Below, piece by piece: positions 3,297-34,552 of a stretch of 64,000 bases of DNA. The DNA comes from an uncultured Gammaproteobacteria bacterium (GTDB lineage: Bacteria; Patescibacteriota; Microgenomatia; UBA10105; UBA927): positions 14 to 64,013 of the forward strand of contig CAYMYO010000001.1 of NCBI GenBank assembly GCA_964394685.1. The letters run 5' to 3'. Under the pieces are notes generated by a model that searched no databases, was not told the origin of the DNA, and saw nothing but the letters and a program-made list of their open reading frames with translations. The number at the start of each line of letters is the position of its first letter. Position 1 is the stretch's first letter. Position numbers and translations under genes: made by a program.

Positions 3297-3737
3297 GTGC
3301 GTGTGGACAAGGAACGATTACCCCACGGGAAAGCAGTGAACCGGCGAAGGATACTGGCTGAGACTCGGCAAAGAGCGGTGTTTAATGTGGACCAACGGAT
3401 TATCGAGAGAAGCCAAGCGGAGCGGCGTTTGATGGAAATTGATCAGATACTGTCTCCTGATGACCAGACCTTATCTATTATGAACGATCAGGAACGGGAG
3501 CAAACCCGGACCGGTTTGGAGATTGAACGCATTTGGCTGCAATTTAAGTTCAGTATGATCACCCCAGTGGAAAAACAGCGATTACTTGCAGGTAAATTTG
3601 ACGAATTGGAGAAGACCAAACCTGACTTGTACAACTGGTTAGTCGCTAGGAACGAAGACGAGTTGTCTATGGCGGAGCGGATTCGTGATAAGGTGATGCC
3701 ACCCATACGTGTTGCAGGATATTATACAAAGCGCTAG
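3297..3737 (+). CDS. Hypothetical Arg/Glu-rich protein with a GC-rich 5' portion. GTG start; alternative ATG start at 3432.
   Basis: Complete ORF from GTG 3297, with a stop at 3294-3296 just upstream. The N-terminal 45 codons are strongly GC- and Arg-rich, unlike the neighbours. No recognisable family. Confidence 0.35.
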   Translation: MRVDKERLPHGKAVNRRRILAETRQRAVFNVDQRIIERSQAERRLMEIDQILSPDDQTLSIMNDQEREQTRTGLEIERIWLQFKFSMITPVEKQRLLAGKFDELEKTKPDLYNWLVARNEDELSMAERIRDKVMPPIRVAGYYTKR

Positions 3738-3784: not shown

Positions 3785-4456
3785 ATGTACAAACTTTCTC
3801 CGTCCGACTTTGCGTACTTATATGAAGAGTGTAAGTTTTGTTATGTGTTGAAAATCAAACGGGGAGTTATTCGGCCGAGCATGCCCATGCCGGGGGTATT
3901 TTCTGCACTCAATACACGTCTTCAAGGAACGCTTATTGGAAAAGAACTCCGGCAGCTTTCACCAGAACTTCCTGCAGGCATTGTAGAAAGTCAGGAAGGG
4001 CATATAGAATCGCAAGTGATACCCGGAACAAAAGTATATATCAAAGGGAAGTATGATTTGTTAGTCAGGCAGCCGGATAATACGTATCTGATTGTTGATT
4101 TTAAAATCAGCCAGCCAAGTGAGGATAAGACAACCAAATTTCAAACACAACTGCAGGCATATCATTACGCGTTTGAACATCCGGCTCACGGGGAACCGAT
4201 TGTCATAACCAAAACGGGACTCATCATCATGTATCCGGACAAAACAACATTTGAAAACGGCCGGGCAATTCTTGATTTTCCACCGCAGTGGCTGGAAATT
4301 CCCATTGATGAACAAAAATTTTTACGGTTTATGGGAGAGGTGAGTTTGCTTTTGGAAGGACCGACACCCATGGAAAATCCACATTGTCCGTGGTGTCAGT
4401 ATCGGCATTTGGGAGAAAAACTCGCTCATCCGCAAACATTAGATATACCGTTTTAA
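3785..4456 (+). CDS. Cas4/RecB-like PD-(D/E)XK nuclease (DUF83-like) with a putative Fe-S cluster.
   Basis: N-terminal CKFCY and C-terminal CPWC cysteine pairs. Motif II/III YDLLVRQ...YLIVDFKIS (D...D-x-K). QLQAYHYA matches the QxxxY motif of RecB-family nucleases. No cas genes are nearby. Confidence 0.6.
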   Translation: MYKLSPSDFAYLYEECKFCYVLKIKRGVIRPSMPMPGVFSALNTRLQGTLIGKELRQLSPELPAGIVESQEGHIESQVIPGTKVYIKGKYDLLVRQPDNTYLIVDFKISQPSEDKTTKFQTQLQAYHYAFEHPAHGEPIVITKTGLIIMYPDKTTFENGRAILDFPPQWLEIPIDEQKFLRFMGEVSLLLEGPTPMENPHCPWCQYRHLGEKLAHPQTLDIPF

Positions 4457-4733: not shown

Positions 4734-4784
4734 AGTAGTTTGTCTCCTTTCTGTTCACCATTATAACAGATTTTGCAGTATTAC

Positions 4785-4858
4785 GTGATTTCGAACGGTT
4801 ACTCAATGGTTACAAGGCTATTTTCAATCAAATTTTAGTTCGAAATCGTTGAGCGGAA
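4785..4858 (+). repeat. Copy 1 of an ~75-95-nt repeated element with a 10-bp terminal inverted repeat (GATTTCGAAC...GTTCGAAATC). It overlaps the promoter region of the LigT-like gene.
   Basis: GATTTCGAAC at 4787-4796 and GTTCGAAATC at 4838-4847 flank a conserved core GGTTAcaAGGCTATTTTcaaTCAAA, followed by GAGCGGAA. It is near-identical to the copy at 5434-5529. Confidence 0.6.
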
Positions 4859-4871
4859 CCAGAACCTAAGA

Positions 4872-4880
4872 TGATATAAT
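4872..4880 (+). promoter_or_regulatory. Extended -10 promoter element (TGaTATAAT) immediately upstream of the LigT-like ATG. It implies a leaderless or near-leaderless transcript.
   Basis: TGATATAAT ends 8 nt before ATG 4888. Confidence 0.4.
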
Positions 4881-4887
4881 TCTAGCT

Positions 4888-5412
4888 ATGCTTCAGAGTG
4901 TTATCCTTATCCCTATTCCTTCAGCGGATCCTGTTATTGGTGAATGGCGAAAAAAATATGATCACGTAGCACTCCATGGGATTCCGGCACATATTACACT
5001 TCTTTTTCCATTTAAAGAATCATCTCAAATTACTCAAGAAATAATAAAGAAACTCGAAGGTATATTTTTGAAGGTTAAACAATTTCCTTTTACCTTAGAT
5101 AGGATAAATACATTTCCGAACGTGATTTTTCTTGATCCGAATCCAAGAGATGAGTTTATTAAGTTAATCGAAGCAATTGTTCATATTTTCCCGGAAAATT
5201 CGCCCTATGAAGGAAAGTACTCGTCGATAAATCCTCATGCAACTATTGCACAGATAAGTGATATTGAAAAGACAGATTCATTGAAGAAACAAATAGAAGA
5301 AGATATTTCAATAAACTTTCCAATTCAATGTCTGGCAAAGGAAGCATGGTTAATGATTGAAGATGAGAAAGGTGAATGGCATATTCAATCAAAATTTCAA
5401 TTTCTTTCCTAG
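4888..5412 (+). CDS. 2H phosphoesterase superfamily protein (LigT / 2'-5' RNA ligase-like).
   Basis: Two H-x-T/S-x motifs (HITLLF and HATIAQ) with the spacing typical of LigT-like 2H enzymes. GC content is lower than the surrounding core genes. Confidence 0.55.
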   Translation: MLQSVILIPIPSADPVIGEWRKKYDHVALHGIPAHITLLFPFKESSQITQEIIKKLEGIFLKVKQFPFTLDRINTFPNVIFLDPNPRDEFIKLIEAIVHIFPENSPYEGKYSSINPHATIAQISDIEKTDSLKKQIEEDISINFPIQCLAKEAWLMIEDEKGEWHIQSKFQFLS

Positions 5413-5433
5413 TGTCTTGTACCCCCATACTGC

Positions 5434-5529
5434 ATGATTTCGAATGATTGCTCCAGGGTTATGAGGCTATTTTTAGTCAAATATTAGTTCGAAATCGTTG
5501 AATTTGAATTTTCAACTGTTTGAGCGGAA
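5434..5529 (+). repeat. Copy 2 of the repeated element (same orientation as copy 1). It carries a 19-nt insertion that forms an extra small hairpin.
   Basis: GATTTCGAAT at 5436-5445 and GTTCGAAATC at 5487-5496. The extra hairpin GTTGAA-tttgaatt-TTCAAC lies at 5497-5516, then GAGCGGAA at 5522-5529. The copy is preceded by TGTACCCCCA (5417-5426). Confidence 0.6.
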
Positions 5530-6237: not shown

Positions 6238-6300
6238 CCGGATTCCCGTTCGACTCGAAGACTCGCTCAGAGCGCAGCGAACCGGATTATTTTGTGCCGC
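6238..6300 (+). terminator. GC-rich structured element with terminator-like architecture downstream of the 5640 gene.
   Basis: CCGG(attcccg)TTCG ... CGAACCGG is an interrupted inverted repeat with an internal CGCTC-a-GAGCG hairpin, followed by ATTATTTT. It is preceded by TGTACCCCCA (6229-6238), the same 10-mer found after the LigT-like gene. Confidence 0.4.
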
Positions 6301-6397
6301 GTAAGGGAGTCGGACCCTTGTTGATAGATTGAGAATCTACCGTACTAACCGTTATACGAACGCGGCAGAAGTTACAGCTAATTCTATCAATAACCTC

Positions 6398-20404: not shown

Positions 20405-21424
20405 ATGAAAAAATTAAAACTTAAGTTTCTTAAACACAAAAATCTGTTTTCGTTTTTTGTTCCAGTAGTTATTATAGCACTCCTCATCGGTGTCATTATT
20501 GTTAAGCGAAATAGAGATTATATGGTGACATTGAAAACAAAAACCATACCGGAAATAATAGCGAAGGTAACAGGGGATCCGACGATTAAAGTAAAAGAGG
20601 TCGCGAAATTGAAAAAAGTTAGCGGCATATACCAATTTGAACTCAATCTTGATATTGGCGGTACAGCAAGAACGTTTACGTCATACATGACGAAAGACGC
20701 AAAAATATTTTTTACCACAGGAAGTGTTGTGAGTGAACTTGGGAAAGCACCCGCAGCGGCTGGAGCACAACAAGAGCAACCGAAAGTGACATGTGCGGAT
20801 GTAAAAAAAGCAGATGTGCCGAAAGTGTCCGGATTTATCGTTGCGGATTGTCCGTTTGGCCTTCAGATGCAGCGATTAATGAATAAGGCTATTTTGGAAC
20901 AACCAGCGCTAAAGACTGTTTTTGATATCAAATATATCGGTTCAATTGTTGATGGAAAAATTACCGCTATGCATGGAGATAAGGAAGCACAAGAGAATCT
21001 GCGCCAGATTTGTATTCGGGAAGAACAGAAAAATTTCTATTGGTTGTATGTTTCTTGTTATATGAAAGAAGGTAAATTTTCAGAATGTCTTGCATCATCC
21101 GGAGTAAATACCGCTAATGTGAACGCGTGTATGACTGACAGCAAGCGTGGAAATGTATATGCACAAAAAGACTTTGATTTAGCAAATAAATTTAATATTG
21201 GCAGCTCACCAACATTACTTGTAAATGATTCCCAAATCGTGTCAGAATTTGATTTTGGAGGAAGAACTGCGGATGCGTTAAAACAAGTTGCATGTTGCGG
21301 ATCTAAAACACAGGGAAGTTTCTGTTCAAAGGCGTTGTCTACGGATCAAGTGGCTGCAGCATTTTCTGTGACTGAAGCAGCCGCAGCAGGGGGAGCAGCC
21401 GCAGCAAACTGCGGAGCAAATTAA
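20405..21424 (+). CDS. Membrane-anchored thioredoxin-fold (DsbA-like) protein with an Ala/Gly-rich C-terminal tail.
   Basis: N-terminal TM segment. FIVADCPFGLQMQ resembles a DsbA-type active-site region with a single Cys. The C-terminal low-complexity tail is AAAAGGAAAANCGAN. Confidence 0.4.
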   Translation: MKKLKLKFLKHKNLFSFFVPVVIIALLIGVIIVKRNRDYMVTLKTKTIPEIIAKVTGDPTIKVKEVAKLKKVSGIYQFELNLDIGGTARTFTSYMTKDAKIFFTTGSVVSELGKAPAAAGAQQEQPKVTCADVKKADVPKVSGFIVADCPFGLQMQRLMNKAILEQPALKTVFDIKYIGSIVDGKITAMHGDKEAQENLRQICIREEQKNFYWLYVSCYMKEGKFSECLASSGVNTANVNACMTDSKRGNVYAQKDFDLANKFNIGSSPTLLVNDSQIVSEFDFGGRTADALKQVACCGSKTQGSFCSKALSTDQVAAAFSVTEAAAAGGAAAANCGAN

Positions 21425-21435
21425 CGAGAAGATTT

Positions 21436-21478
21436 GAGGTGTTTAACAGCTGCTTCGGTGACCATGCGGCCGCGGGGA
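21436..21478 (-). other. Relic duplicate of the ruvB 3' end (about 43 bp, roughly 39 of 42 positions identical to 22840-22881). It would encode ...PRGRMVTEAAVKHLKSSR*.
   Basis: The direct nucleotide repeat GTTTAACAGCTGC.TCGGTGACCATGCGGCCGCGGGGA occurs both here and inside the true ruvB C-terminus. Confidence 0.7.
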
Positions 21479-21525: not shown

Positions 21526-22713
21526 ATGGCAGAAGCTCAGCCCGTTTTAAATTTGAGGGAAATACCATTTTTTCCATTATCACCCAGTGATGAATTACAG
21601 CGTATTTGTGAATTAGGTAGACAAGTAGATTGTTCTGTTATACCAATTCCAGGTGCAGGATATGTTGTTCATAAAAATGATTCACCGTATATTGCTGAAG
21701 CACCCCTCGTTTTACTTGATTTTGATGATACAGGCGCACAAACAACATCTGATAAAGTTCATTGTTGGGAGGAAATACAGGCATTAGGAATTCCTCAAGA
21801 AGTGGTTAAAGAGTGCGATAAAATTTCTCGTGTATATCTTGGAGATGAAGAACCAATGTATGAACCTGAACTAGAGATGCGTTTACTTTCTCGAGCAAAA
21901 CAATTGGTAGATTCTCATAAGAGTATCGATAAAATACTTGCATCTGTACAAAAACTTCGCGCAGAATTAGTTGCAACAAGAAATTTTGATCAACAACAGG
22001 TAGAAACCGCAATTCGAAATATATATGATCGGACTAGATACACGTCAACGTTATATCCTGATACCATCGAGTCATTACGAAGACTTCATGGAAACGATGA
22101 GATTCCAACAAACGTAGCTATACTTACCTATGGAGACCCAGTATTTCAATTTACAAAGACATCCCAACTTCTTCGTGAAGGTGTTGTTTCGACAGTTTTT
22201 CTAACAACGACTAGAAAAGGAAGATTTTTTCAGGAAGCTTTACATGAAAATCCCTTTCAGCATTTTCCTTTAGTTTATCGATACACAGAAACTCCTCGTG
22301 GGATTGGGGTTGATTTTAAGAATTGGCAGGTTATGGTTGTGCTTTTTGATGATGATCCTAAACAAGTTACGAGTTTTAACAGTGTAGCAGAGCATGAAGG
22401 AATAACGGGATTAGGAGTCGTGCGTGTCAGAAGAGCTGGTGTTAAACGGGCAGAGAAGGATACGCCAATGGGAGCTTTGGTTACAGAAATTCAACCATCT
22501 GATACTTACCTTGATGCAAATTTATTTGAACAGGCAACGAAAGAATTAGAAATACGGGTATTAGAAAACTTTCTAGTCTCAGCGATAAAACAGTCTGGAG
22601 TTGATGTACTTACAGATAAAGATGTTGCAAGGATTTTTGAAATAGTTACTTTAGATAGAGAGATGACTTCAGACACATTACGAGTGTATCTTCTTGAAAG
22701 AACTAAGACATAA
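21526..22713 (+). CDS. Hypothetical protein with an N-terminal HAD-like DxD motif (cargo of the putative insertion).
   Basis: LVLLDFDDTGAQTT resembles HAD motif I (hhhDxDxT). The rest of the protein is unrecognised. Confidence 0.35.
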   Translation: MAEAQPVLNLREIPFFPLSPSDELQRICELGRQVDCSVIPIPGAGYVVHKNDSPYIAEAPLVLLDFDDTGAQTTSDKVHCWEEIQALGIPQEVVKECDKISRVYLGDEEPMYEPELEMRLLSRAKQLVDSHKSIDKILASVQKLRAELVATRNFDQQQVETAIRNIYDRTRYTSTLYPDTIESLRRLHGNDEIPTNVAILTYGDPVFQFTKTSQLLREGVVSTVFLTTTRKGRFFQEALHENPFQHFPLVYRYTETPRGIGVDFKNWQVMVVLFDDDPKQVTSFNSVAEHEGITGLGVVRVRRAGVKRAEKDTPMGALVTEIQPSDTYLDANLFEQATKELEIRVLENFLVSAIKQSGVDVLTDKDVARIFEIVTLDREMTSDTLRVYLLERTKT

Positions 22714-22805: not shown

Positions 22806-23831
22806 TTATTCGCTCGCAATGACATGCTCTTTTGAAGCAAGATGTTTAACAGCTGCGTCGGTGACCATGCGGCCGCGGGGAGTGCGTTTGAGAAATCCAA
22901 GCTGCATGAGGTACGGTTCGAGTATTTCTTCAACAGTACCAACATCTTCTGATATGGTCGCAGCTAATGTTTCAATTCCTATTGGTCCGCCATTATGTTT
23001 TTCAATAATGGTTGTAAGAAGTCGTCTATCAGAAGCATCAAGACCCTCTTTATCAATTCCAAGAAGAACAAGTGATTGCTCAAGAATAGATGCTGTTATC
23101 TCCGGAAGCCCTGCGACTTGCGCAACGTCTCTACTTCGTTTTAGTAGTCGTAGAGCTATACGCGGAGTGCCCCTACTTCGTTTAGCCAGTTCCAATTTTG
23201 CTTTTGCATCAATTGCGATATGAAGTTTTTTTGCCGCTTGGGTTATGATGTGTTCTAAATCAGCTGGTTGGTAAAAAGATAGCCGTTCAATAACCCCAAA
23301 CCGGTCCCGCATTGGAGATGAGAGAAGTCCCGCACGTGTCGTCGCTCCGACAATGGTAAATGGAGGAAGATCAAGCCTGAGTGTTCGCGCTGATGGTCCT
23401 TTTCCGATGATGATATCAAGAGCAAAATCCTCCATTGCCGGATAGAGTGTTTCCTCAACGAGTTTATTAAGCCTATGAATTTCATCAATAAATAAAATGT
23501 CATGAGGTTTGAGATTGGTGAGTATTGCAGCAAGATCTCCTGCCCGTTCTATCGCAGGACCAGATGTGATTCTGATGTTTACTTTCATTTCTTTTGCAAT
23601 CAGGTGTGCGAGCGTTGTTTTGCCTAAGCCCGGCGGTCCATACAAAAGAATGTGTTCCAATGCTTCCTTGCGTTTTTTGGCAGCAGTTATTGCGACGTGA
23701 AGACTTTTTTTTACTGCTAACTGACCGTAGAATTCATCCCAAGAAGACGCACGTAATGAAGTGATTATACGTTCTTCTTCAGGAGGCGTTGTATCAAAGA
23801 GAATATCTTCTTTCTTTTTGATTTGTTTCAT
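22806..23831 (-). CDS. ruvB: Holliday junction branch migration helicase RuvB.
   Basis: AAA+ Walker [10 protein letters not shown], Walker [11 protein letters not shown], RuvB C-terminal winged helix. Confidence 0.95.
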
Positions 23832-30304: not shown

Positions 30305-30708
30305 AATATATTCGATTTTGGCTACCGGCCGTGTTGTGGATGGCGGTGATATTTGCATTTTCATCACGTCAAAAAGTTACGTTTACCGATTCGCATGTTA
30401 TCAGCTTTGTATTTTTTAAAACATTACATCTTGTTGAATACTTTGTGTTATATGTAGTGACCTATCGGGCAGTACGAAATACAAGTAAGAATAAATACAG
30501 GGCGTGGATTATCGCATTTATCATAACAAGCGTATATGCAATTATTGATGAAATCCATCAGCGGTACGTTCCAACTCGAGAAGGGAAGCTGCGTGATGTT
30601 ATAATTGACATGTTTGCAGGAGGACTTGCATGGGTAACACTCAAACAATTACTACCAACAATGCCAAAGAAACTCAAGAGGTGGGCGAGAGACTGGCATC
30701 TGATGTAA
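30301..30708 (+). CDS. VanZ-family membrane protein.
   Basis: Four TM helices and the VanZ motif region IIDEIHQRYVPTREGKLRDVIIDMFAG. Confidence 0.55.
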   Translation: MKYIRFWLPAVLWMAVIFAFSSRQKVTFTDSHVISFVFFKTLHLVEYFVLYVVTYRAVRNTSKNKYRAWIIAFIITSVYAIIDEIHQRYVPTREGKLRDVIIDMFAGGLAWVTLKQLLPTMPKKLKRWARDWHLM

Positions 30709-31070
30709 TAAAAAAATCGCTTCCTCGAATTTGTTGTTTATATGGGGAACTTGGAGCAGGGAAGACGGTATTTGCCCAAGGGTTTGCAAAAGGATTAGGA
30801 CTCCCCTCCCGTTTGGTCTCCCCTACGTTTATTATTATGAAACGGTATAGTATTCCAGGAAAAACAGATTTCTTTTACCATATAGATCTGTATCGATTAC
30901 AAGAAGAGGCACAGATTGCTAAGTTAGGTTTAGAAGAAATTTTTCAAGATCCATTTGCAATTACAGTTATTGAATGGGCAGATAGATTAGGTGTTCATTT
31001 ACCCAAATTGCGAGTTGATATTCATTTTAAGATAACAAACGACGGAGAAAGGGTAATCACGTATGCATGA
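30630..31070 (+). CDS. tsaE: tRNA threonylcarbamoyladenosine biosynthesis protein TsaE.
   Basis: GELGAGKTVFAQGFAKGLGL...SPTF. It overlaps the VanZ gene by 79 nt. Confidence 0.75.
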   Translation: MGNTQTITTNNAKETQEVGERLASDVIKKSLPRICCLYGELGAGKTVFAQGFAKGLGLPSRLVSPTFIIMKRYSIPGKTDFFYHIDLYRLQEEAQIAKLGLEEIFQDPFAITVIEWADRLGVHLPKLRVDIHFKITNDGERVITYA

Positions 31071-31635
31071 TTTATTAGTTCAAGCTATAGATATTCTCAA
31101 TAACGGTGGAGTGATTATTTTTCCAACGGATACTGCGTTTGGGGTCGGTTGCAGGATAGACAATAGCAAAGCTATTGATAGAGTATTTCGTATACGAAAC
31201 CGCCCCAGGATACAGCCATTACCTATATTAGTGTCAAGTCAAGAGCAATCACTCGCCTATTTCATTCACCCATCCGATATTGTGCGACATCTTATGCAAA
31301 CCTATTGGCCGGGAGCGCTCACCATTGTTGATTATTGTAAAAAAAATATGGTGCTCTCCCCCATCCGTGGTGGCGGAGAAACCGTTGGATTGAGATGGCC
31401 CAATCATCCGGTTCCGCAAATGCTTATTGATGGTGCAGGGGTGCCTATTGTCGGACCGTCAGCAAATATTCATGGCCATCCTACTCCATTTACCTTTGCT
31501 TCTTTAGATCCGGTATTTTTACAATTAGTTGATTTTGTCATTCCGGGTGAATGTAAAGGTCAATTATCATCAACTGTTGTGGATTGTACGGTCAATCCGT
31601 ACAAAATTATCCGTCAAGGAGCGGTTGTGTTATGA
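31063..31635 (+). CDS. tsaC: L-threonylcarbamoyladenylate synthase (YrdC/Sua5 family).
   Basis: IIFPTDTAFGVGC, LPILVSS, PGALTIV, VGPSANIHG: the YrdC fold. Confidence 0.85.
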   Translation: MHDLLVQAIDILNNGGVIIFPTDTAFGVGCRIDNSKAIDRVFRIRNRPRIQPLPILVSSQEQSLAYFIHPSDIVRHLMQTYWPGALTIVDYCKKNMVLSPIRGGGETVGLRWPNHPVPQMLIDGAGVPIVGPSANIHGHPTPFTFASLDPVFLQLVDFVIPGECKGQLSSTVVDCTVNPYKIIRQGAVVL

Positions 31636-31961
31636 AACTTATTATTGATACGCGAAGCAACGAAGAAACAATCATAGCCTTTGTTGTGGATGGAAAAAGG
31701 ATGGAAGAATCACTCCAAACAAATCACGCACACTCACAGGCGGTGTTACCTCTCATCGAAAAACTGCTTGCGAAAAAACACCTGTCTCTGAATGATATTA
31801 CGCAAATAGAAGTTTCTGTTGACACAGGCTCCTACACCGGCCGTCGCGTCGGTGCAGCTATCGCGCAAACGCTCAGCCAGCTTCTTCACGTTCCTGTTAA
31901 CGGACAGGAAGCATCTGTTCCGATAGATATTGCCTATGAAAAAGACAAGTGGAGTAAGTGA
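31632..31961 (+). CDS. tsaB: TsaB, N-terminal (YeaZ-like) domain only.
   Basis: MKLIIDTRSNEET... and VDTGSYTGRRVGAAIAQTLSQLL (counterpart of GPGSFTGVRIG). ATGA overlap with the tsaC stop. Confidence 0.7.
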   Translation: MKLIIDTRSNEETIIAFVVDGKRMEESLQTNHAHSQAVLPLIEKLLAKKHLSLNDITQIEVSVDTGSYTGRRVGAAIAQTLSQLLHVPVNGQEASVPIDIAYEKDKWSK

Positions 31962-31984
31962 TTTTGTGTGTTACAATAAGGGAT

Positions 31985-32119
31985 ATGAAAAGAATGACTT
32001 CGTATCTGCTCAGACAATACAAAAAAATGTCCGGGGATAAGAAGATCCGGATTGCGATGAAATTGTCAAAACTCGTCCGTGATGTAAGGAGATGCGGTAT
32101 GCAAGTCACCGGAGCCTAA
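31985..32119 (+). CDS. Small ORF (44 aa) upstream of the NTase gene. It may be a gene fragment or a small partner protein.
   Basis: ATG 31985 to TAA 32117-32119: MKRMTSYLLRQYKKMSGDKKIRIAMKLSKLVRDVRRCGMQVTGA. Too short to appear in the supplied ORF track. Confidence 0.2.
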   Translation: MKRMTSYLLRQYKKMSGDKKIRIAMKLSKLVRDVRRCGMQVTGA

Positions 32120-32124
32120 TTGAT

Positions 32125-32703
32125 ATGGAAGCTGAGGAATCACTTCTCATTACACTTGCAGAATTCTTTCATGCCCATGCTATTCCGTATATGATTACCG
32201 GCGCATGGAGCGTTATTTTCTATGGAAGACCCAGGGCGTCTCATGATATTGATTTTGTCGTTGATCTATTTCCGAAAGATGTCCAGAGGACGGTTCAGGC
32301 TCTCGCGTCACTTCCCAGTGAGTTTACAGTATATCCGGAGTCAGTCAGGGAAGGAATTGAACAAAGAAATATTTTTCAGATTTATCATAAACCGACGATA
32401 ATGAAAATCGACGTGTGGCTTTTGACAAATGATCCGTTCGACCAAGTGAGATTTAAACGGAAAAAATACGTGAACATCATTGGGAAAAATGTGTCTATTG
32501 CGTCAGCCGAAGACACCATTCTTCAAAAGCTTAGGTGGTACAAAGAAGCAAAAATTGAAAAACACATTATTGATGCCGCATTTGTGTATCAGATTCAAGG
32601 GAAACGACTGGACAAAAGATATATTACGGCGTGGGCGAAAAAACTTGGTATCACAAGATACATCAATAAATTGGGATCAATAAATCTTGAGCAATACCTC
32701 TGA
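32125..32703 (+). CDS. Minimal nucleotidyltransferase-fold (Pol beta superfamily) protein.
   Basis: ITGAWSVIFYGRPRASHDIDFVVD matches the hG[GS]...DhDh NTase signature. ATG 32125 has GGAG 8 nt upstream; ATG 32092 is the alternative start. Confidence 0.5.
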   Translation: MEAEESLLITLAEFFHAHAIPYMITGAWSVIFYGRPRASHDIDFVVDLFPKDVQRTVQALASLPSEFTVYPESVREGIEQRNIFQIYHKPTIMKIDVWLLTNDPFDQVRFKRKKYVNIIGKNVSIASAEDTILQKLRWYKEAKIEKHIIDAAFVYQIQGKRLDKRYITAWAKKLGITRYINKLGSINLEQYL

Positions 32704-32749
32704 TAATTTCATCGTCTACTCCTATAGAGCTGGTTTTTTGTCACCGGTA

Positions 32750-32791
32750 CAGATAGATATTCCCTACGGGAAAGATAAGTGGAGATAAAAG
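32750..32791 (+). other. Relic duplicate of the tsaB 3' end (about 33 of 42 positions identical to 31920-31961).
   Basis: CAGATAGATATTCCCTACGGGAAAGATAAGTGGAGATAAAAG here versus CCGATAGATATTGCCTATGAAAAAGACAAGTGGAGTAAGTGA at the true tsaB end. Confidence 0.6.
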
Positions 32792-33066
32792 CTGTAACTA
32801 TACCCTATAGTTTGACATAGATGGTATTATATGCTAGCATACTCCCACTAAATAAAACAGATTTAGGCTTATTTGCAGCCTAATTTTTGTTCATTTAGAC
32901 ACTTTTATTCTTGCACGTTTACAAGTTGCGGTTATATACACGCTTTATATTTGGTGAGCAGTGTTAAAGAGATCTCTATAGGTCTTTTTGACGCTGCTTA
33001 CCAGTGGTTTGGTTGGTAAGACAGATAATCCAAATTTTCTAATCTACGATCAAAGGAGTGTGTAAA

Positions 33067-33543
33067 ATGGCGAAGAAATTACTCGGTGGGGCAAAGGCTC
33101 TTAATAATCCCTGGAAGGGATATAAAGAGTCTCGAACGTGGGGGAAATGGTTTGTCATTCAGTGGCCGGATGTTCATCCGGATAGCCACTGCGAGGAGGG
33201 TCAGTATACTCCACATGACGAAAAACCAATGTGCATGAGATGTGGTTGGATCCCTCCTGAGGCTATTTGTTGCGGACATTGCATCGAGCTTCTGCGTAAC
33301 AAAGCGGAGCTCCACTTTCTCGCGAGCGAAGTGACCTGCAGTTCGTTCTCCAGTCTTCTGCTCACTGGGTACCAGGCTTATGTTGATCATCATCGTAAGC
33401 AACTTGTAGGACCTCCATTCTTTGAGGAAGTTAAAGAGTGGTGGAATGGGCTTCCAAGTGAGAAGAAGGATCGTTATATCAAGAAATACGACAAACCAGA
33501 TCTTTCTTCATTGCTCCGCTTGCTTGCGCAATTGATTGATTAA
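33067..33543 (+). CDS. Cys-rich hypothetical protein with anomalously high GC (~48%).
   Basis: AGGAG 8 nt upstream of ATG 33067. Ten Cys, including CMRCGW and CCGHC clusters. GC is about 10 points above the neighbouring genes. Confidence 0.4.
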   Translation: MAKKLLGGAKALNNPWKGYKESRTWGKWFVIQWPDVHPDSHCEEGQYTPHDEKPMCMRCGWIPPEAICCGHCIELLRNKAELHFLASEVTCSSFSSLLLTGYQAYVDHHRKQLVGPPFFEEVKEWWNGLPSEKKDRYIKKYDKPDLSSLLRLLAQLID

Positions 33544-33574
33544 CAATCCGTCTAACCGCAATACTAACGTGCAA

Positions 33575-33645
33575 ATACACCCTCCGACCGATTTTTGGTC
33601 ATTCCGAAAGGAAAAATTGAGAGGGTGTTTTTGTTGAAAGGGTAA
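33575..33645 (+). terminator. Rho-independent terminator with a long composite loop.
   Basis: ACACCCTC...GAGGGTGT followed by TTTTGTT. Confidence 0.45.
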
Positions 33646-33694
33646 TTTTGAACTTTAAGTGGTAATTTTTAATGCGAGTGGGTATGATAATTAT

Positions 33695-34552
33695 ATGCAG
33701 TATTTTTTGAGGCATTTTTTCTTACCGCACCATACAAATAATCACCGGGCGAAAGCGCTTCATATCGATTCTCTTTTGTGCTACGTTCTTTTATTTGCTG
33801 TATTTAACTTCGGAATTCGGATTATTCATCGTGAATTCCCGTCTGTTTTGGGCTACGCAACGGATATTCGTGTGGATGCGCTCCTGGCCTCAGCGAATGC
33901 CCAGCGCGTGAATTTGGGCCTTAACTCGCTGAAGCTGAATGCCGCGCTTTCTCAAGCAGCTTATGAAAAGGCAAAGGACATGTTTGCCAATGATTATTGG
34001 GCGCATAATAGTCCGCAAGGGAAAACTCCCTGGTCATTTATTGTTAATTCCGGGTATAGATATACGATAGCCGGAGAAAATCTTGCGAAAAATTTTGAAA
34101 CAAGCGGCGGCGTGGTATCAGCCTGGATAGCGTCACCAACTCATAGAGACAATATCGTGAAGCCTGGGTATCAGGATATTGGTTTTGCTGTCGTTAACGG
34201 CGTATTAAACGGTGAAGAAACGACGCTTGTTGTTCAAATGTTTGGTGCAGGAGGATCGCCGTTAGCAGAGAAACCACCTGTTAAAACAGTAATTCCCGAA
34301 GTTGCGTCTGCGGTAGTAGGATCAAATGTTTTTTCACAATCAACATTCAAGCCTATTTTTAATATTCCAACCATTACCCGTGATATCGCATTCATGTTTA
34401 TTGGTCTTATTGTGGGTGTGTTGATACTTGACGGTATTGTGGTGTCAAGAAAGAAAATTGTCCGCGTCGCGGGTCATAATATTGCTCACATTCTCTTTTT
34501 CCTAACGTTTTTTGTTGCTCTTACGATGGTGCAAAGAGGAGCTCTATTATGA
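33695..34552 (+). CDS. CAP/SCP/PR-1-like (YkwD-type) domain protein, membrane-anchored.
   Basis: N-terminal TM segment; CAP motifs HNSPQGK, GENLAKN, HRDNIVKPGYQDIG; C-terminal TMs. Confidence 0.55.
   Translation: MQYFLRHFFLPHHTNNHRAKALHIDSLLCYVLLFAVFNFGIRIIHREFPSVLGYATDIRVDALLASANAQRVNLGLNSLKLNAALSQAAYEKAKDMFANDYWAHNSPQGKTPWSFIVNSGYRYTIAGENLAKNFETSGGVVSAWIASPTHRDNIVKPGYQDIGFAVVNGVLNGEETTLVVQMFGAGGSPLAEKPPVKTVIPEVASAVVGSNVFSQSTFKPIFNIPTITRDIAFMFIGLIVGVLILDGIVVSRKKIVRVAGHNIAHILFFLTFFVALTMVQRGALL

Follow-up and report, generated by a model that had tools for sequence, protein, structure and literature searches.

A probable cassette accretion site between tsaB and a CAP-domain gene in Patescibacteria, carrying a candidate toxin-antitoxin module

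Introduction

Cis-mobilizable elements (CIMEs) that lack an integrase accrete at the 3′ ends of genes through a recombinase acting in trans (PMC5704250). Here we describe a locus with a comparable outline, the spacer between tsaB and a CAP-domain gene in a 64,000-nucleotide stretch of a Patescibacteria genome (GenBank assembly GCA_964394685.1, contig CAYMYO010000001.1, positions 14 to 64,013, forward strand; the whole stretch is called the window below). In this spacer, a small open reading frame (ORF) and a nucleotidyltransferase (NTase) gene lie between two copies of the tsaB 3′ end and are followed by an orphan cysteine-rich (Cys-rich) gene. Taken as a whole, the evidence makes it probable that the tsaB-CAP spacer is a cassette accretion site in this Patescibacteria lineage, with two independent units in the window. 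Bacteria of the candidate phyla radiation have tiny genomes with few recognisable mobile elements or defence systems, and their gene exchange is extensive; to our knowledge, the routes of this exchange are poorly known.

Accretion of CIMEs and of integrative and mobilizable elements (IMEs), such as that of ICESt1 and ICESt3 at fda or of IMEs at tRNA-Lys genes, resembles the present case in that insertion occurs in a gene 3′ end and moves older units further away from the gene. Tandem arrays with a common repeat, in which no member has a recombinase of its own, were also found here, in the related contig L092 (four tsaB 3′-end copies) and in the metagenomic locus L012 (four copies of a 45-nt repeat). 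However, the units described here measure only 0.7-1.2 kb and hold one or two genes, no integrase or conjugation genes lie nearby, the same cargo is flanked by unrelated repeats at different genes, the borders of the repeats vary, and L092 units include part of the gene to the right, namely the CAP 5′ end. The minimal mobile elements of Neisseria likewise occupy the interval between two conserved genes (tsaB and CAP in the present case), which is filled by whole-gene cassettes that differ from strain to strain, in hosts thought to be naturally transformable. Those elements are exchanged by double crossover in their flanks and leave no duplicated ends, whereas displaced 3′ ends and growing arrays are seen here.

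Integron arrays, including clusters of attC sites lacking integron-integrases (CALIN), share with this locus cassettes on the 1-kb scale, often toxin-antitoxin modules, with short repeats between them and with the newest cassette expected next to the anchor. In contrast to integrons, the repeats here show sequence conservation and code for the C-terminal end of the anchor protein rather than forming structure-defined attC hairpins, no intI or attI is present among the profiled ORFs or called genes, and the cassettes carry promoters of their own, while integron cassettes are promoter-poor. Insertion-duplication (Campbell-type integration) is a laboratory tool in Streptococcus and Bacillus that uses non-replicating circular or permuted DNA; as here, its product is a homologous segment, an insert and a second homologous segment, with both copies being chimeras of donor and recipient. 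We know of no documented case in which Campbell-type integration builds cassette arrays as a natural route. The locus combines the variable spacer of the Neisseria type, the gene-end repeats and accretion of CIMEs and IMEs, and the look of an integron array, without flank-only exchange, an integrase or attC. No description of such gene-end cassette arrays was found in the Patescibacteria literature searched.

Results and Discussion

A second tsaB 3′ end beyond an inserted segment

In the best ungapped block, positions 31912-31954 and 32742-32784, 830 nt apart, are identical at 34 of 43 positions (79%). A sequence-only reading of this DNA had reported about 33 of 42 positions identical; the repeat itself is confirmed, while the count is corrected to 30 of 42 for 31920-31961 against 32750-32791. 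Scored against 500 Markov shuffles of the 3 kb downstream, for which the best score averaged 22.0 (standard deviation 1.1, maximum 27), the duplication stands at z ~11, and the runner-up match within the 64-kb window, both strands included, reached 25/43. The downstream copy is in frame and has its own stop, reading SPVQIDIPYGKDKWR against the SVPIDIAYEKDKWSK of the gene. The elements of this part of the locus are:

31632-31961, + strand: tsaB in a short 109-aa form, the anchor gene (Pfam TsaD, 1.5e-11; 33 homologues; synteny with L089 and L093-L100)
31912-31961, + strand: tsaB 3′ end in current use (..ASVPIDIAYEKDKWSK*), the upstream repeat copy (repeat statistics)
31962-32741, + strand: cassette 1 (unit 1), an inserted segment of 780 bp, missing at the same site in L090/L091, L089 and L093-L100
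31985-32119, + strand: ORF for a 44-aa basic helical protein, putative antitoxin, starting 23 nt past the tsaB stop
32125-32703, + strand: NTase gene (192 aa plus stop), putative MenT-like toxin, starting 5 nt after the small ORF
32742-32791, + strand: apparent displaced earlier tsaB 3′ end (SPVQIDIPYGKDKWR*, stop at 32786-32788), starting 38 nt past the NTase stop
32792-32904, + strand: 113-nt segment, apparently once downstream of tsaB and moved along with the displaced end (87% identity to L092 1477-1607, which lies 3′ of tsaB)

The two ORFs that had been placed between the copies, 44 aa and NTase, are both present at these positions. Cassette 1 has a GC content of 0.397 against a genome average of 0.391; it has no terminal inverted repeats and encodes no recombinase. 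Chance similarity or an assembly artefact could be argued from the shortness of the repeat (43-50 nt), its 79% identity and the use of metagenome-assembled data, and we regard either as extremely improbable. Besides the shuffle statistics, the lack of a comparable match elsewhere in the window and the preserved frame and stop, the same order of tsaB, module, second copy and leader is reproduced in L001 and L002, which are independent assemblies from different sequencing runs. The displaced copy also matches real tsaB ends of other genomes, and the microhomology of only 4-5 nt at the junctions seen in L092 would not suffice to create a k-mer assembly artefact.

The tsaB-CAP spacer in relatives

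The right-hand border of the variable interval is conserved among the relatives compared and is formed by the CAP-domain gene:

33695-34552, + strand: CAP-domain gene (Pfam CAP, 6.3e-17); 33656-34552 with its promoter

Between these borders the contents differ. The site is empty in L090/L091, where the tsaB stop is followed by 124 nt with a hairpin and then by the CAP start; the corresponding distance in the window is 1733 nt. In L089 and in eight contigs of the P0133 lineage (L093-L100), the spacer holds only a minus-strand ORF of 77-84 aa, with an rve transposase in addition to it in L099. The search for an empty tsaB-CAP junction proposed by the sequence-only reading was therefore successful, and its interpretation of the arrangement (target 3′ end, cargo, second 3′ end) as a real insertion is upheld by junctions that are empty or differently filled in relatives.

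An array was found in L092, in which four copies of the tsaB 3′ end (stops at 1355, 2470, 3437 and 4495) are separated by units of ~1 kb whose cargo comprises a 103-aa Gly-rich ORF, an NYN-domain gene and a 201-aa ORF. All four copies encode VNTMKSPAQIDIPYGKDKWS*: the seven variable codons are silent, and the sole non-silent codon is at the boundary. With an expectation of 0.20 for a silent change at random, this gives P ~8e-5. Displaced ends in this array have therefore kept their coding integrity. Two of the L092 units end in a CAP 5′ fragment, one of which is fused directly to the next tsaB 3′ copy with only 4-5 nt of microhomology at the junction. A CAP 5′ fragment left of the displaced tsaB end in the window was not significant, as 758 of 1000 shuffles scored as well.

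Helical minus-strand ORFs of 77-90 aa with the end ..LEKHA(K/R)L(M/I)PLAD converge on the tsaB stop in L003, L089, L092 (two copies) and L093-L100. They are the commonest residents of the tsaB-CAP spacer, have no Pfam match on record for the called genes, and are absent from the window. TsaB of the P0133 type has an extended tail (..WTSLLSCTVT*) encoded by palindromic, terminator-like sequence. TsaB proteins are usually about twice as long as the 104-123 aa found in the present lineage, and the short form is kept at such a length in ~30 relatives.

Origin of the displaced ends

The 33 TsaB homologues (104-123 aa) sort into C-terminal allele types, with mosaic breakpoints past a conserved GRRVGAAIA block. 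The two tsaB ends of the window belong to different allele types: the attached end resembles P0136- and P0147-type ends, and the displaced copy agrees with the "SPAQIDIPYGKDKWS" type at 13 of 15 residues. At the nucleotide level, the displaced copy and the functional tsaB end of L090/L091 share 89.6% identity across 48 nt and 97% across 36 nt, and the identity of the displaced copy to the four tsaB 3′ copies of L092 is 90-95%. Window segments 32800-32931 and 33556-33716 are 87-90% identical to L092, while the core genes of L090/L092-type genomes are only 73-77% identical to the window. The retention of coding capacity, together with identity above that of the core genes, indicates that the displaced copies are in all likelihood former working gene ends and that at least part of the tsaB-CAP region appears to have moved between lineages. 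The attached end (31912-31961) would then have arrived together with the cassette.

The lower identity of the repeat pair in the window had been read as the mark of an older event. This is not borne out: the displaced copy is 90-97% identical to functional ends, the two copies are different allele types, and displaced copies elsewhere differ only at silent positions, so the lower identity appears to reflect two different alleles and not age. The same silent-only differences, and an identity to functional ends well above that of the core genes, argue for serial replacement of the tsaB 3′ end by incoming cassettes over an old duplication decaying in place.

A target-site duplication would take the second form, with transposition-like staggered cuts ~30-75 nt apart at the tsaB end, gap repair and decay of the downstream copy. 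Some insertion sequence families (the IS1634 group) make long target duplications of variable length, which we count in support of it, and the repeats across loci do consist of different, target-derived sequence of variable length (16-74 nt). We nevertheless consider it very unlikely. Displaced and attached copies differ almost only at silent positions with their stops kept, a pattern already seen in three insertions, and the displaced copy of the window resembles functional ends of other lineages while the attached copy is of the other allele type. Unlike a transposon, moreover, the cassettes share no conserved termini or inverted repeats among 45 loci and carry no transposase, and the CAP 5′ fragments in L092 units would not be produced by simple target duplication.

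The small-ORF/NTase module

MenT1 is a nucleotidyltransferase of tRNA 3′ ends that is neutralised by MenA1, a helical protein of 68 aa without a DNA-binding domain that is encoded just upstream (PMC10435456). The MenA1-MenT1 pair (Rv0078B-Rv0078A of M. tuberculosis; MenT/AbiEii, DUF1814 family) is the best structural match to the module in cassette 1. The AlphaFold2 model of the NTase (predicted local distance difference test score, pLDDT, 92.3) has the bilobed minimal NTase fold of the solved MenT structures, and Foldseek ranks 1-5 were all MenT1 entries (8an4, 8an5, 8rr5; E 5.6e-7 to 1.2e-5, template modelling (TM) score 0.56-0.69), with the best chains from 8an4/8an5 (E 6e-7 to 7e-6, TM 0.67-0.69). 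LnuA, TM1012 and ANT(2'')-Ia ranked below MenT1 with TM scores of 0.5-0.6 (0.57-0.59 for ANT(2'')-Ia). The suggestion that the NTase is akin to NTases of toxin-antitoxin systems therefore agrees with the model, in which the closest fold is that of a toxin.

The likeness extends to the size of the protein, a minimal NTase of ~190 aa, and to the very short helical protein without a DNA-binding domain encoded immediately upstream (44 aa here, 68 aa in MenA1). Residues S39, D41, K135 and D150 correspond by number, with the sequences unaligned, to T39, D41, K137 and D152, which were mutated in MenT1. Unlike these points, the sequences show no detectable similarity (12-14% identity in structural alignment), and a profile search of solved structures with the NTase did not recover MenT1, although TM1012 and LnuA were weakly found. 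Matches to ULK1 kinase in that search (E 0.013) were spurious.

The NTase has 415 homologues at E < 1e-3, nearly all of 192-194 aa. Most of these records are labelled "hypothetical", and the few bearing a name are from Gottesman-, Shapiro- and Daviesbacteria and the "Patescibacteria group". An alignment of 32 sequences contained 41 invariant columns, including G26, S39, H40, D41, D43, D96, K135 and D150. The motif residues G26, S29, D41, D43, D96, K135 and D150 are invariant in these 32 sequences and, in the model, occupy the strands and helices where they would be expected; MenT1 was not part of the alignment. In 44 distinct loci, the 44-aa ORF immediately precedes the NTase, and its consensus is MKKxxxFLLKKYxKMSGDKKIRLGMxLSxMVRxVRKAGxxATGA. 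This conservation shows it to be a real gene and a fixed partner of the NTase, as the sequence-only reading had supposed.

Profile searches gave a divided answer. The NTase scored 21.8 bits (E 2e-4) against AbiEii (PF08843), under the cut-off of 22.5 bits, and some of its homologues have a precomputed PF08843 match; it scored 21.5 bits against Aminoglyc_resit (PF10706), over the cut-off of 21 bits, across residues 9-105 only. The small ORF and the Cys-rich protein had no Pfam match, and none of the small ORF, the NTase and the Cys-rich protein matched NCBIfam, PADLOC or PHROGs. The module is like MenT/AbiEii systems in having an adjacent putative antitoxin gene in one operon, 5 nt upstream, throughout the 44 loci, a likeness of layout short of demonstrated homology to MenA1 or AbiEi. 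It is unlike them in its PF08843 score, in a small protein similar to no family, and in its Patescibacteria hosts. Layout and modelled fold fit MenAT1, with membership of that family by sequence not established.

By analogy, the 44-aa protein and the NTase most likely work like the MenA1-MenT1 toxin-antitoxin pair. The NTase would add nucleotides to tRNA 3′ ends and the 44-aa protein would block it, and such activity would make the cassette addictive and self-stabilising. We consider it unlikely, if worth weighing, that the NTase is no toxin and acts instead on small molecules in the manner of aminoglycoside or lincosamide resistance enzymes, or is a housekeeping enzyme tied to tRNA-Asn, with the small ORF as a leader peptide or regulator. 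The Aminoglyc_resit score just over its cut-off is consistent with this, as are the good structural matches to LnuA, ANT(2'')-Ia and TM1012, the weak matches to TM1012 and LnuA in the profile search, and the lack of a toxin match in PADLOC or NCBIfam. Against it, MenT1 is the best structural match, the tightly conserved gene 5 nt upstream has the layout of an antitoxin-toxin operon, and the module travels as a unit into unrelated contexts, in one of which it shares an array with a RelB/RelE-like pair (read from ORF translations, not profile-tested).

Mobility of the module

From 80 metagenomic loci fetched, ~45 distinct copies of the module were obtained. Their flanking ORFs almost never share clusters, that is, the module has unrelated neighbours, and the small-ORF/NTase module is mobile. 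It lies, for example, between ftsI and murE in the dcw cluster (L006) and beside ABC-transporter genes (L004, L061). A protein-level relic of a penicillin-binding protein end past the module in L006 was suggestive by eye, failed the cross-locus null and was dropped.

In nine loci, the module directly follows tRNA-Asn(GTT). The 44-aa ORF begins with an ATG that overlaps the CCA end encoded in the tRNA gene (..GGAGCCATG) in L004, L028, L036, L038, L046 and L055; the module starts within 2-3 nt of the CCA end in L011 and L015, and 26 nt past it in L014. A module whose putative toxin would modify tRNA 3′ ends is thus itself physically docked on the 3′ end of tRNA-Asn, and it is probably co-transcribed with the tRNA. 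In three of the nine loci, tRNA-Asn(GTT) is split upstream of the module by a group I intron (Rfam RF00028, 65-86 bits; L004:5527-5814, L011:54-284, L015:202-435). The tRNA-like sequences 5′ of the module in these three loci were considered as tRNA relics and rejected, being intact tRNA-Asn genes with group I introns. ARAGORN misses the intron-split genes, and L028 has the same upstream sequence pattern. A 42-nt repeat (L008:4620-4661 and 4913-4954, 95%) surrounds an 84-aa ORF between the NTase module and tRNA-Asn in L008, and members of this ORF family also precede tRNA-Asn in L028 and L046. L015 and L042, which are otherwise different, share a motif (..GGAGGTGTGAAGCTATTACACCTGGAAGGTGTGAAACC..) in tandem past the NTase stop.

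Flank repeats were sought by comparing 250 nt upstream with 500 nt downstream of each module, with mismatched loci as the null (mean 9.6, 99th percentile 14). Scores were 41 for L061, 23.5 for L064 and 20.5 for the window; L012 (15.5, just over the 99th percentile) and L055 (13.5, just under it) were marginal. The flank repeats in L061, L064 and L055 are local sequence at each locus: the L061 repeat (46 nt) is the 3′ end of a convergent FtsX-type permease gene, the L064 repeat (31 nt) is the stop-codon region of a kinase-like gene, and the marginal 16-nt repeat of L055 is the 3′ end of tRNA-Asn. Displaced and attached permease ends in L061 differ at 4 of 48 nt, all of them silent, including TAA/TGA. 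No conserved cassette termini were found among the 45 loci.

The same form of gene end, cargo and gene end recurs in the window at ruvB (21421-21478 and 22806-22881, minus strand). The displaced ruvB end reads PRGRMVTEAAVKHLKSSR (..VKHLKSSR) in an open frame with its own stop, and its tail differs from the present ruvB end; the 395-aa cargo (21526-22713) had no family match in four libraries. The match of the tsaB architecture to the ruvB insertion, and its recurrence as proposed by the sequence-only reading, are thus confirmed at ruvB and, around the NTase module, clearly in L061 and L064 and marginally in L055.

Self-comparison of all loci revealed a second array, in L012 (L012:2800-5800), with four copies of a 45-nt terminator-like repeat (GGAGCACTAGAACGCCATTTGCAAGAGGTCCTCTTTTT). 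Between these copies lie, each as a unit of its own, a RelB/RelE-like pair, the small-ORF/NTase module and a secreted beta-helix-like protein of 350 aa. A 274-aa NTase-like gene borders the array on one side and a convergent Fic-domain gene on the other; these labels, too, were read from translations and were not profile-tested. No relatives of the NTase and no tsaB 3′-end sequence were found in viral contigs, and phage genomes gave no match. Plasmid homologues of the NTase were only distant (26-32% identity, on cyanobacterial and Herpetosiphon plasmids). One of them, in L101 (Nostoc plasmid NZ_CP040298.1, 211095-213041; 32% identity, annotated as 291 aa), lies immediately upstream of a site-specific integrase gene.

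Mechanism of integration

We infer the following direction of exchange and recombination chemistry. Unit 1 would enter by recombination within the last ~50 nt of tsaB. The incoming DNA would bring its own tsaB 3′ end, which now completes the gene (31912-31961), and the earlier end with its downstream terminator region would be pushed beyond the cargo (32742-32904). The outcome would be an insertion-duplication of the Campbell type. One crossover with a donor molecule that was circular or permuted could produce it, and the driver could be the host's homologous recombination, acting on DNA taken up by the cell, or a recombinase in trans. Repeated rounds would build arrays like that of L092, with the newest unit adjoining the gene. 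Of these two drivers we prefer host recombination, which is supported by repeat borders that vary, by repeats that are unrelated from gene to gene and by the CAP fragments in L092 units. Patescibacteria carry genes for competence and homologous recombination (PMC12455944).

The second route would make the cassettes integrase-less, CIME-like satellites of a tyrosine or serine integrase acting in trans, with an att site that mimics the 3′ ends of tsaB, tRNA-Asn or other genes and with tandem accretion. The architecture is that of elements in the 3′ ends of tRNA and protein genes with tandem accretion (PMC5704250), nine module copies adjoin tRNA-Asn and L055 has a 16-nt repeat of the tRNA 3′ end, an att site forced to complete its target gene would also yield silent-only differences, and the distant homologue on the Nostoc plasmid adjoins an integrase. 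We hold this to be rather unlikely even so. The cassettes, L092, L012 and those window ORFs that were examined yielded no integrase. One integrase with one att site does not explain a module whose flanking repeats have unrelated sequences at different genes, the borders of the repeats shift, and CAP 5′ fragments in L092 units are unexpected from a precise att x att exchange. Integron attC sites, an Xer/dif-type module and cDNA-mediated insertion were rejected: the repeats are coding and are not dif-like palindromes, and the units include promoters.

Several observations weigh against replacement of the gene end by host recombination and against the toxin-antitoxin role of the cargo. The two copies in the window are 79% identical with identical runs of ~10 nt, too short for a RecA crossover inside the visible repeat, so that a homologous crossover would have to lie further upstream or the copies would have diverged afterwards. 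The left border of the tsaB repeat varies, at ~24, 50 and 72-83 nt before the stop, which argues against one fixed crossover site. The native end of tsaB was judged from allele similarity alone. Clearly significant flank repeats were present in only 3 of 34 testable NTase loci (the window, L061 and L064, with L012 and L055 marginal). Neither the cassettes nor the 21 profiled of ~61 window ORFs contained a recombinase gene, and the viral contigs searched held no circular form and no element carrying the tsaB 3′ end. Pfam places the NTase just under the AbiEii cut-off and just over that for aminoglycoside NTases. All data are metagenome assemblies, in which the related genomes are represented by fragments only.

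The Cys-rich unit

The second unit of the spacer consists of the following elements:

32905-33640, + strand: unit 2, the Cys-rich orphan gene unit (L088 homology confined to 32905-33633)
~32935-33066, + strand: structured 5′ leader of the Cys-rich gene (folding against shuffles)
33067-33543, + strand: Cys-rich coding sequence, 158 aa (one known homologue)
33577-33635, + strand: terminator-like hairpin with T-run

Among 5.8 billion proteins, the Cys-rich protein has one homologue, in L088, at 71% identity. L088 and the window share only 32905-33633 (promoter, leader, coding sequence and terminator; 81% overall), and their flanks are unrelated. The leader is more conserved with L088 than the coding sequence, as read by eye from the alignment. 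It folds (32935-33075) into a near-perfect hairpin of ~24 bp in which the ribosome-binding site is paired too, at -53.3 kcal/mol (z -7.5, no shuffle as stable). No Rfam family was found in 31500-34000. The Cys-rich gene forms an independent orphan unit that has a promoter, a folded leader and a terminator of its own. Its terminator segment is common to L092 (2065-2224, 90%), where the same terminator and CAP-promoter segment follow a different ORF, which indicates that unit 2 is exchangeable. Flanking repeats around the Cys-rich unit were not found.

The GC content of the coding sequence is 0.472 (z 2.3) against a gene mean of 0.396 (standard deviation 0.033), the third highest of 61 ORFs, and GC at third codon positions (GC3) is 0.481 (z 2.1). 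tsaB (0.448) and the CAP gene (0.430) are likewise above average. The excess reported earlier, ~48% against ~38%, is therefore real and modest. Horizontal origin, which had been argued from it, gains from the presence of the orphan in a different context elsewhere, while the GC argument is weak alone. The predicted structure of the Cys-rich protein is of low confidence (pLDDT 47, from a two-sequence alignment). A conserved Cys/His cluster (H41, C42, C56, C59, C68, C69 and C72) suggests metal binding.

Upstream of unit 2, a promoter scan found a strong promoter-like site at 32812-32840 (TTGACA-17-TAGCAT, with TG, 10/12) that overlaps the palindrome ATGCTAGCAT, so both features noted previously in this non-coding stretch are present. 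A terminator scan placed a bidirectional terminator hairpin at 32863-32883, at most 25 nt past this site. The segment 32812-32883 could specify a tiny transcript or be a remnant regulatory region.

Significance

If it operates as proposed, the tsaB locus would be one concrete route of gene exchange in these bacteria, in which tiny cassettes dock at the 3′ end of a conserved gene while a spare end keeps the gene alive, cassettes pile into arrays, and displaced ends stay readable as a record of earlier events. The module would add a widespread unannotated family of more than 400 sequences to the world of MenT-type toxin-antitoxin systems, in hosts thought to be poor in them. Should host recombination after DNA uptake drive integration, the process would be a natural counterpart of laboratory insertion-duplication, and the locus would offer a ready-made, safe docking site for genetic tools in bacteria that are hard to manipulate.

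More tentatively, and somewhat doubtfully at present, Patescibacteria may own an undescribed, recombinase-poor cassette platform, in which reusable docks are provided by terminators or by the final 20-80 nt of conserved genes (tsaB, ruvB, tRNA-Asn, transporter genes) and each cassette of 0.7-1.2 kb, typically holding an orphan gene or a toxin-antitoxin pair, supplies the anchor gene with a working replacement end. If this is true, its arrays would grow in an integron-like manner without attC or an integron integrase, possibly through natural transformation and insertion-duplication, and the MenT-like module on the CCA end of tRNA-Asn would be its most successful rider.

Other features of the window

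tsaB is the last gene of a tsaE-tsaC(Sua5)-tsaB operon, whose upstream genes are:

30630-31070, + strand: tsaE
31063-31635, + strand: Sua5/tsaC

Past the CAP gene, an 82-aa ORF, rmlA and rmlC follow in an order that is identical in relatives.

A 74-nt direct repeat (82%) at 4779-4852 and 5428-5501 surrounds a 2H-phosphoesterase/LigT-like gene (4888-5412; Pfam 1.8e-20), upstream of a cold-shock-like gene on the minus strand. The two copies share a reading frame at their ends (..AIF(N/S)QILVRNR*), the second has an internal stop, and each holds a 10-bp inverted repeat (GATTTCGAAC..GTTCGAAATC). This locus (4779-5501) may be a third gene-end cassette in the window. The ORFs at 566-991 and 3297-3737 have the highest GC contents of the window (0.488 and 0.483; GC3 0.57 and 0.53) and no Pfam match, and the segment that holds them may have been acquired. 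A PD-(D/E)XK nuclease gene (3785-4456) lies in the same region, whose end is marked by tRNA-Glu (6294-6366, minus strand).

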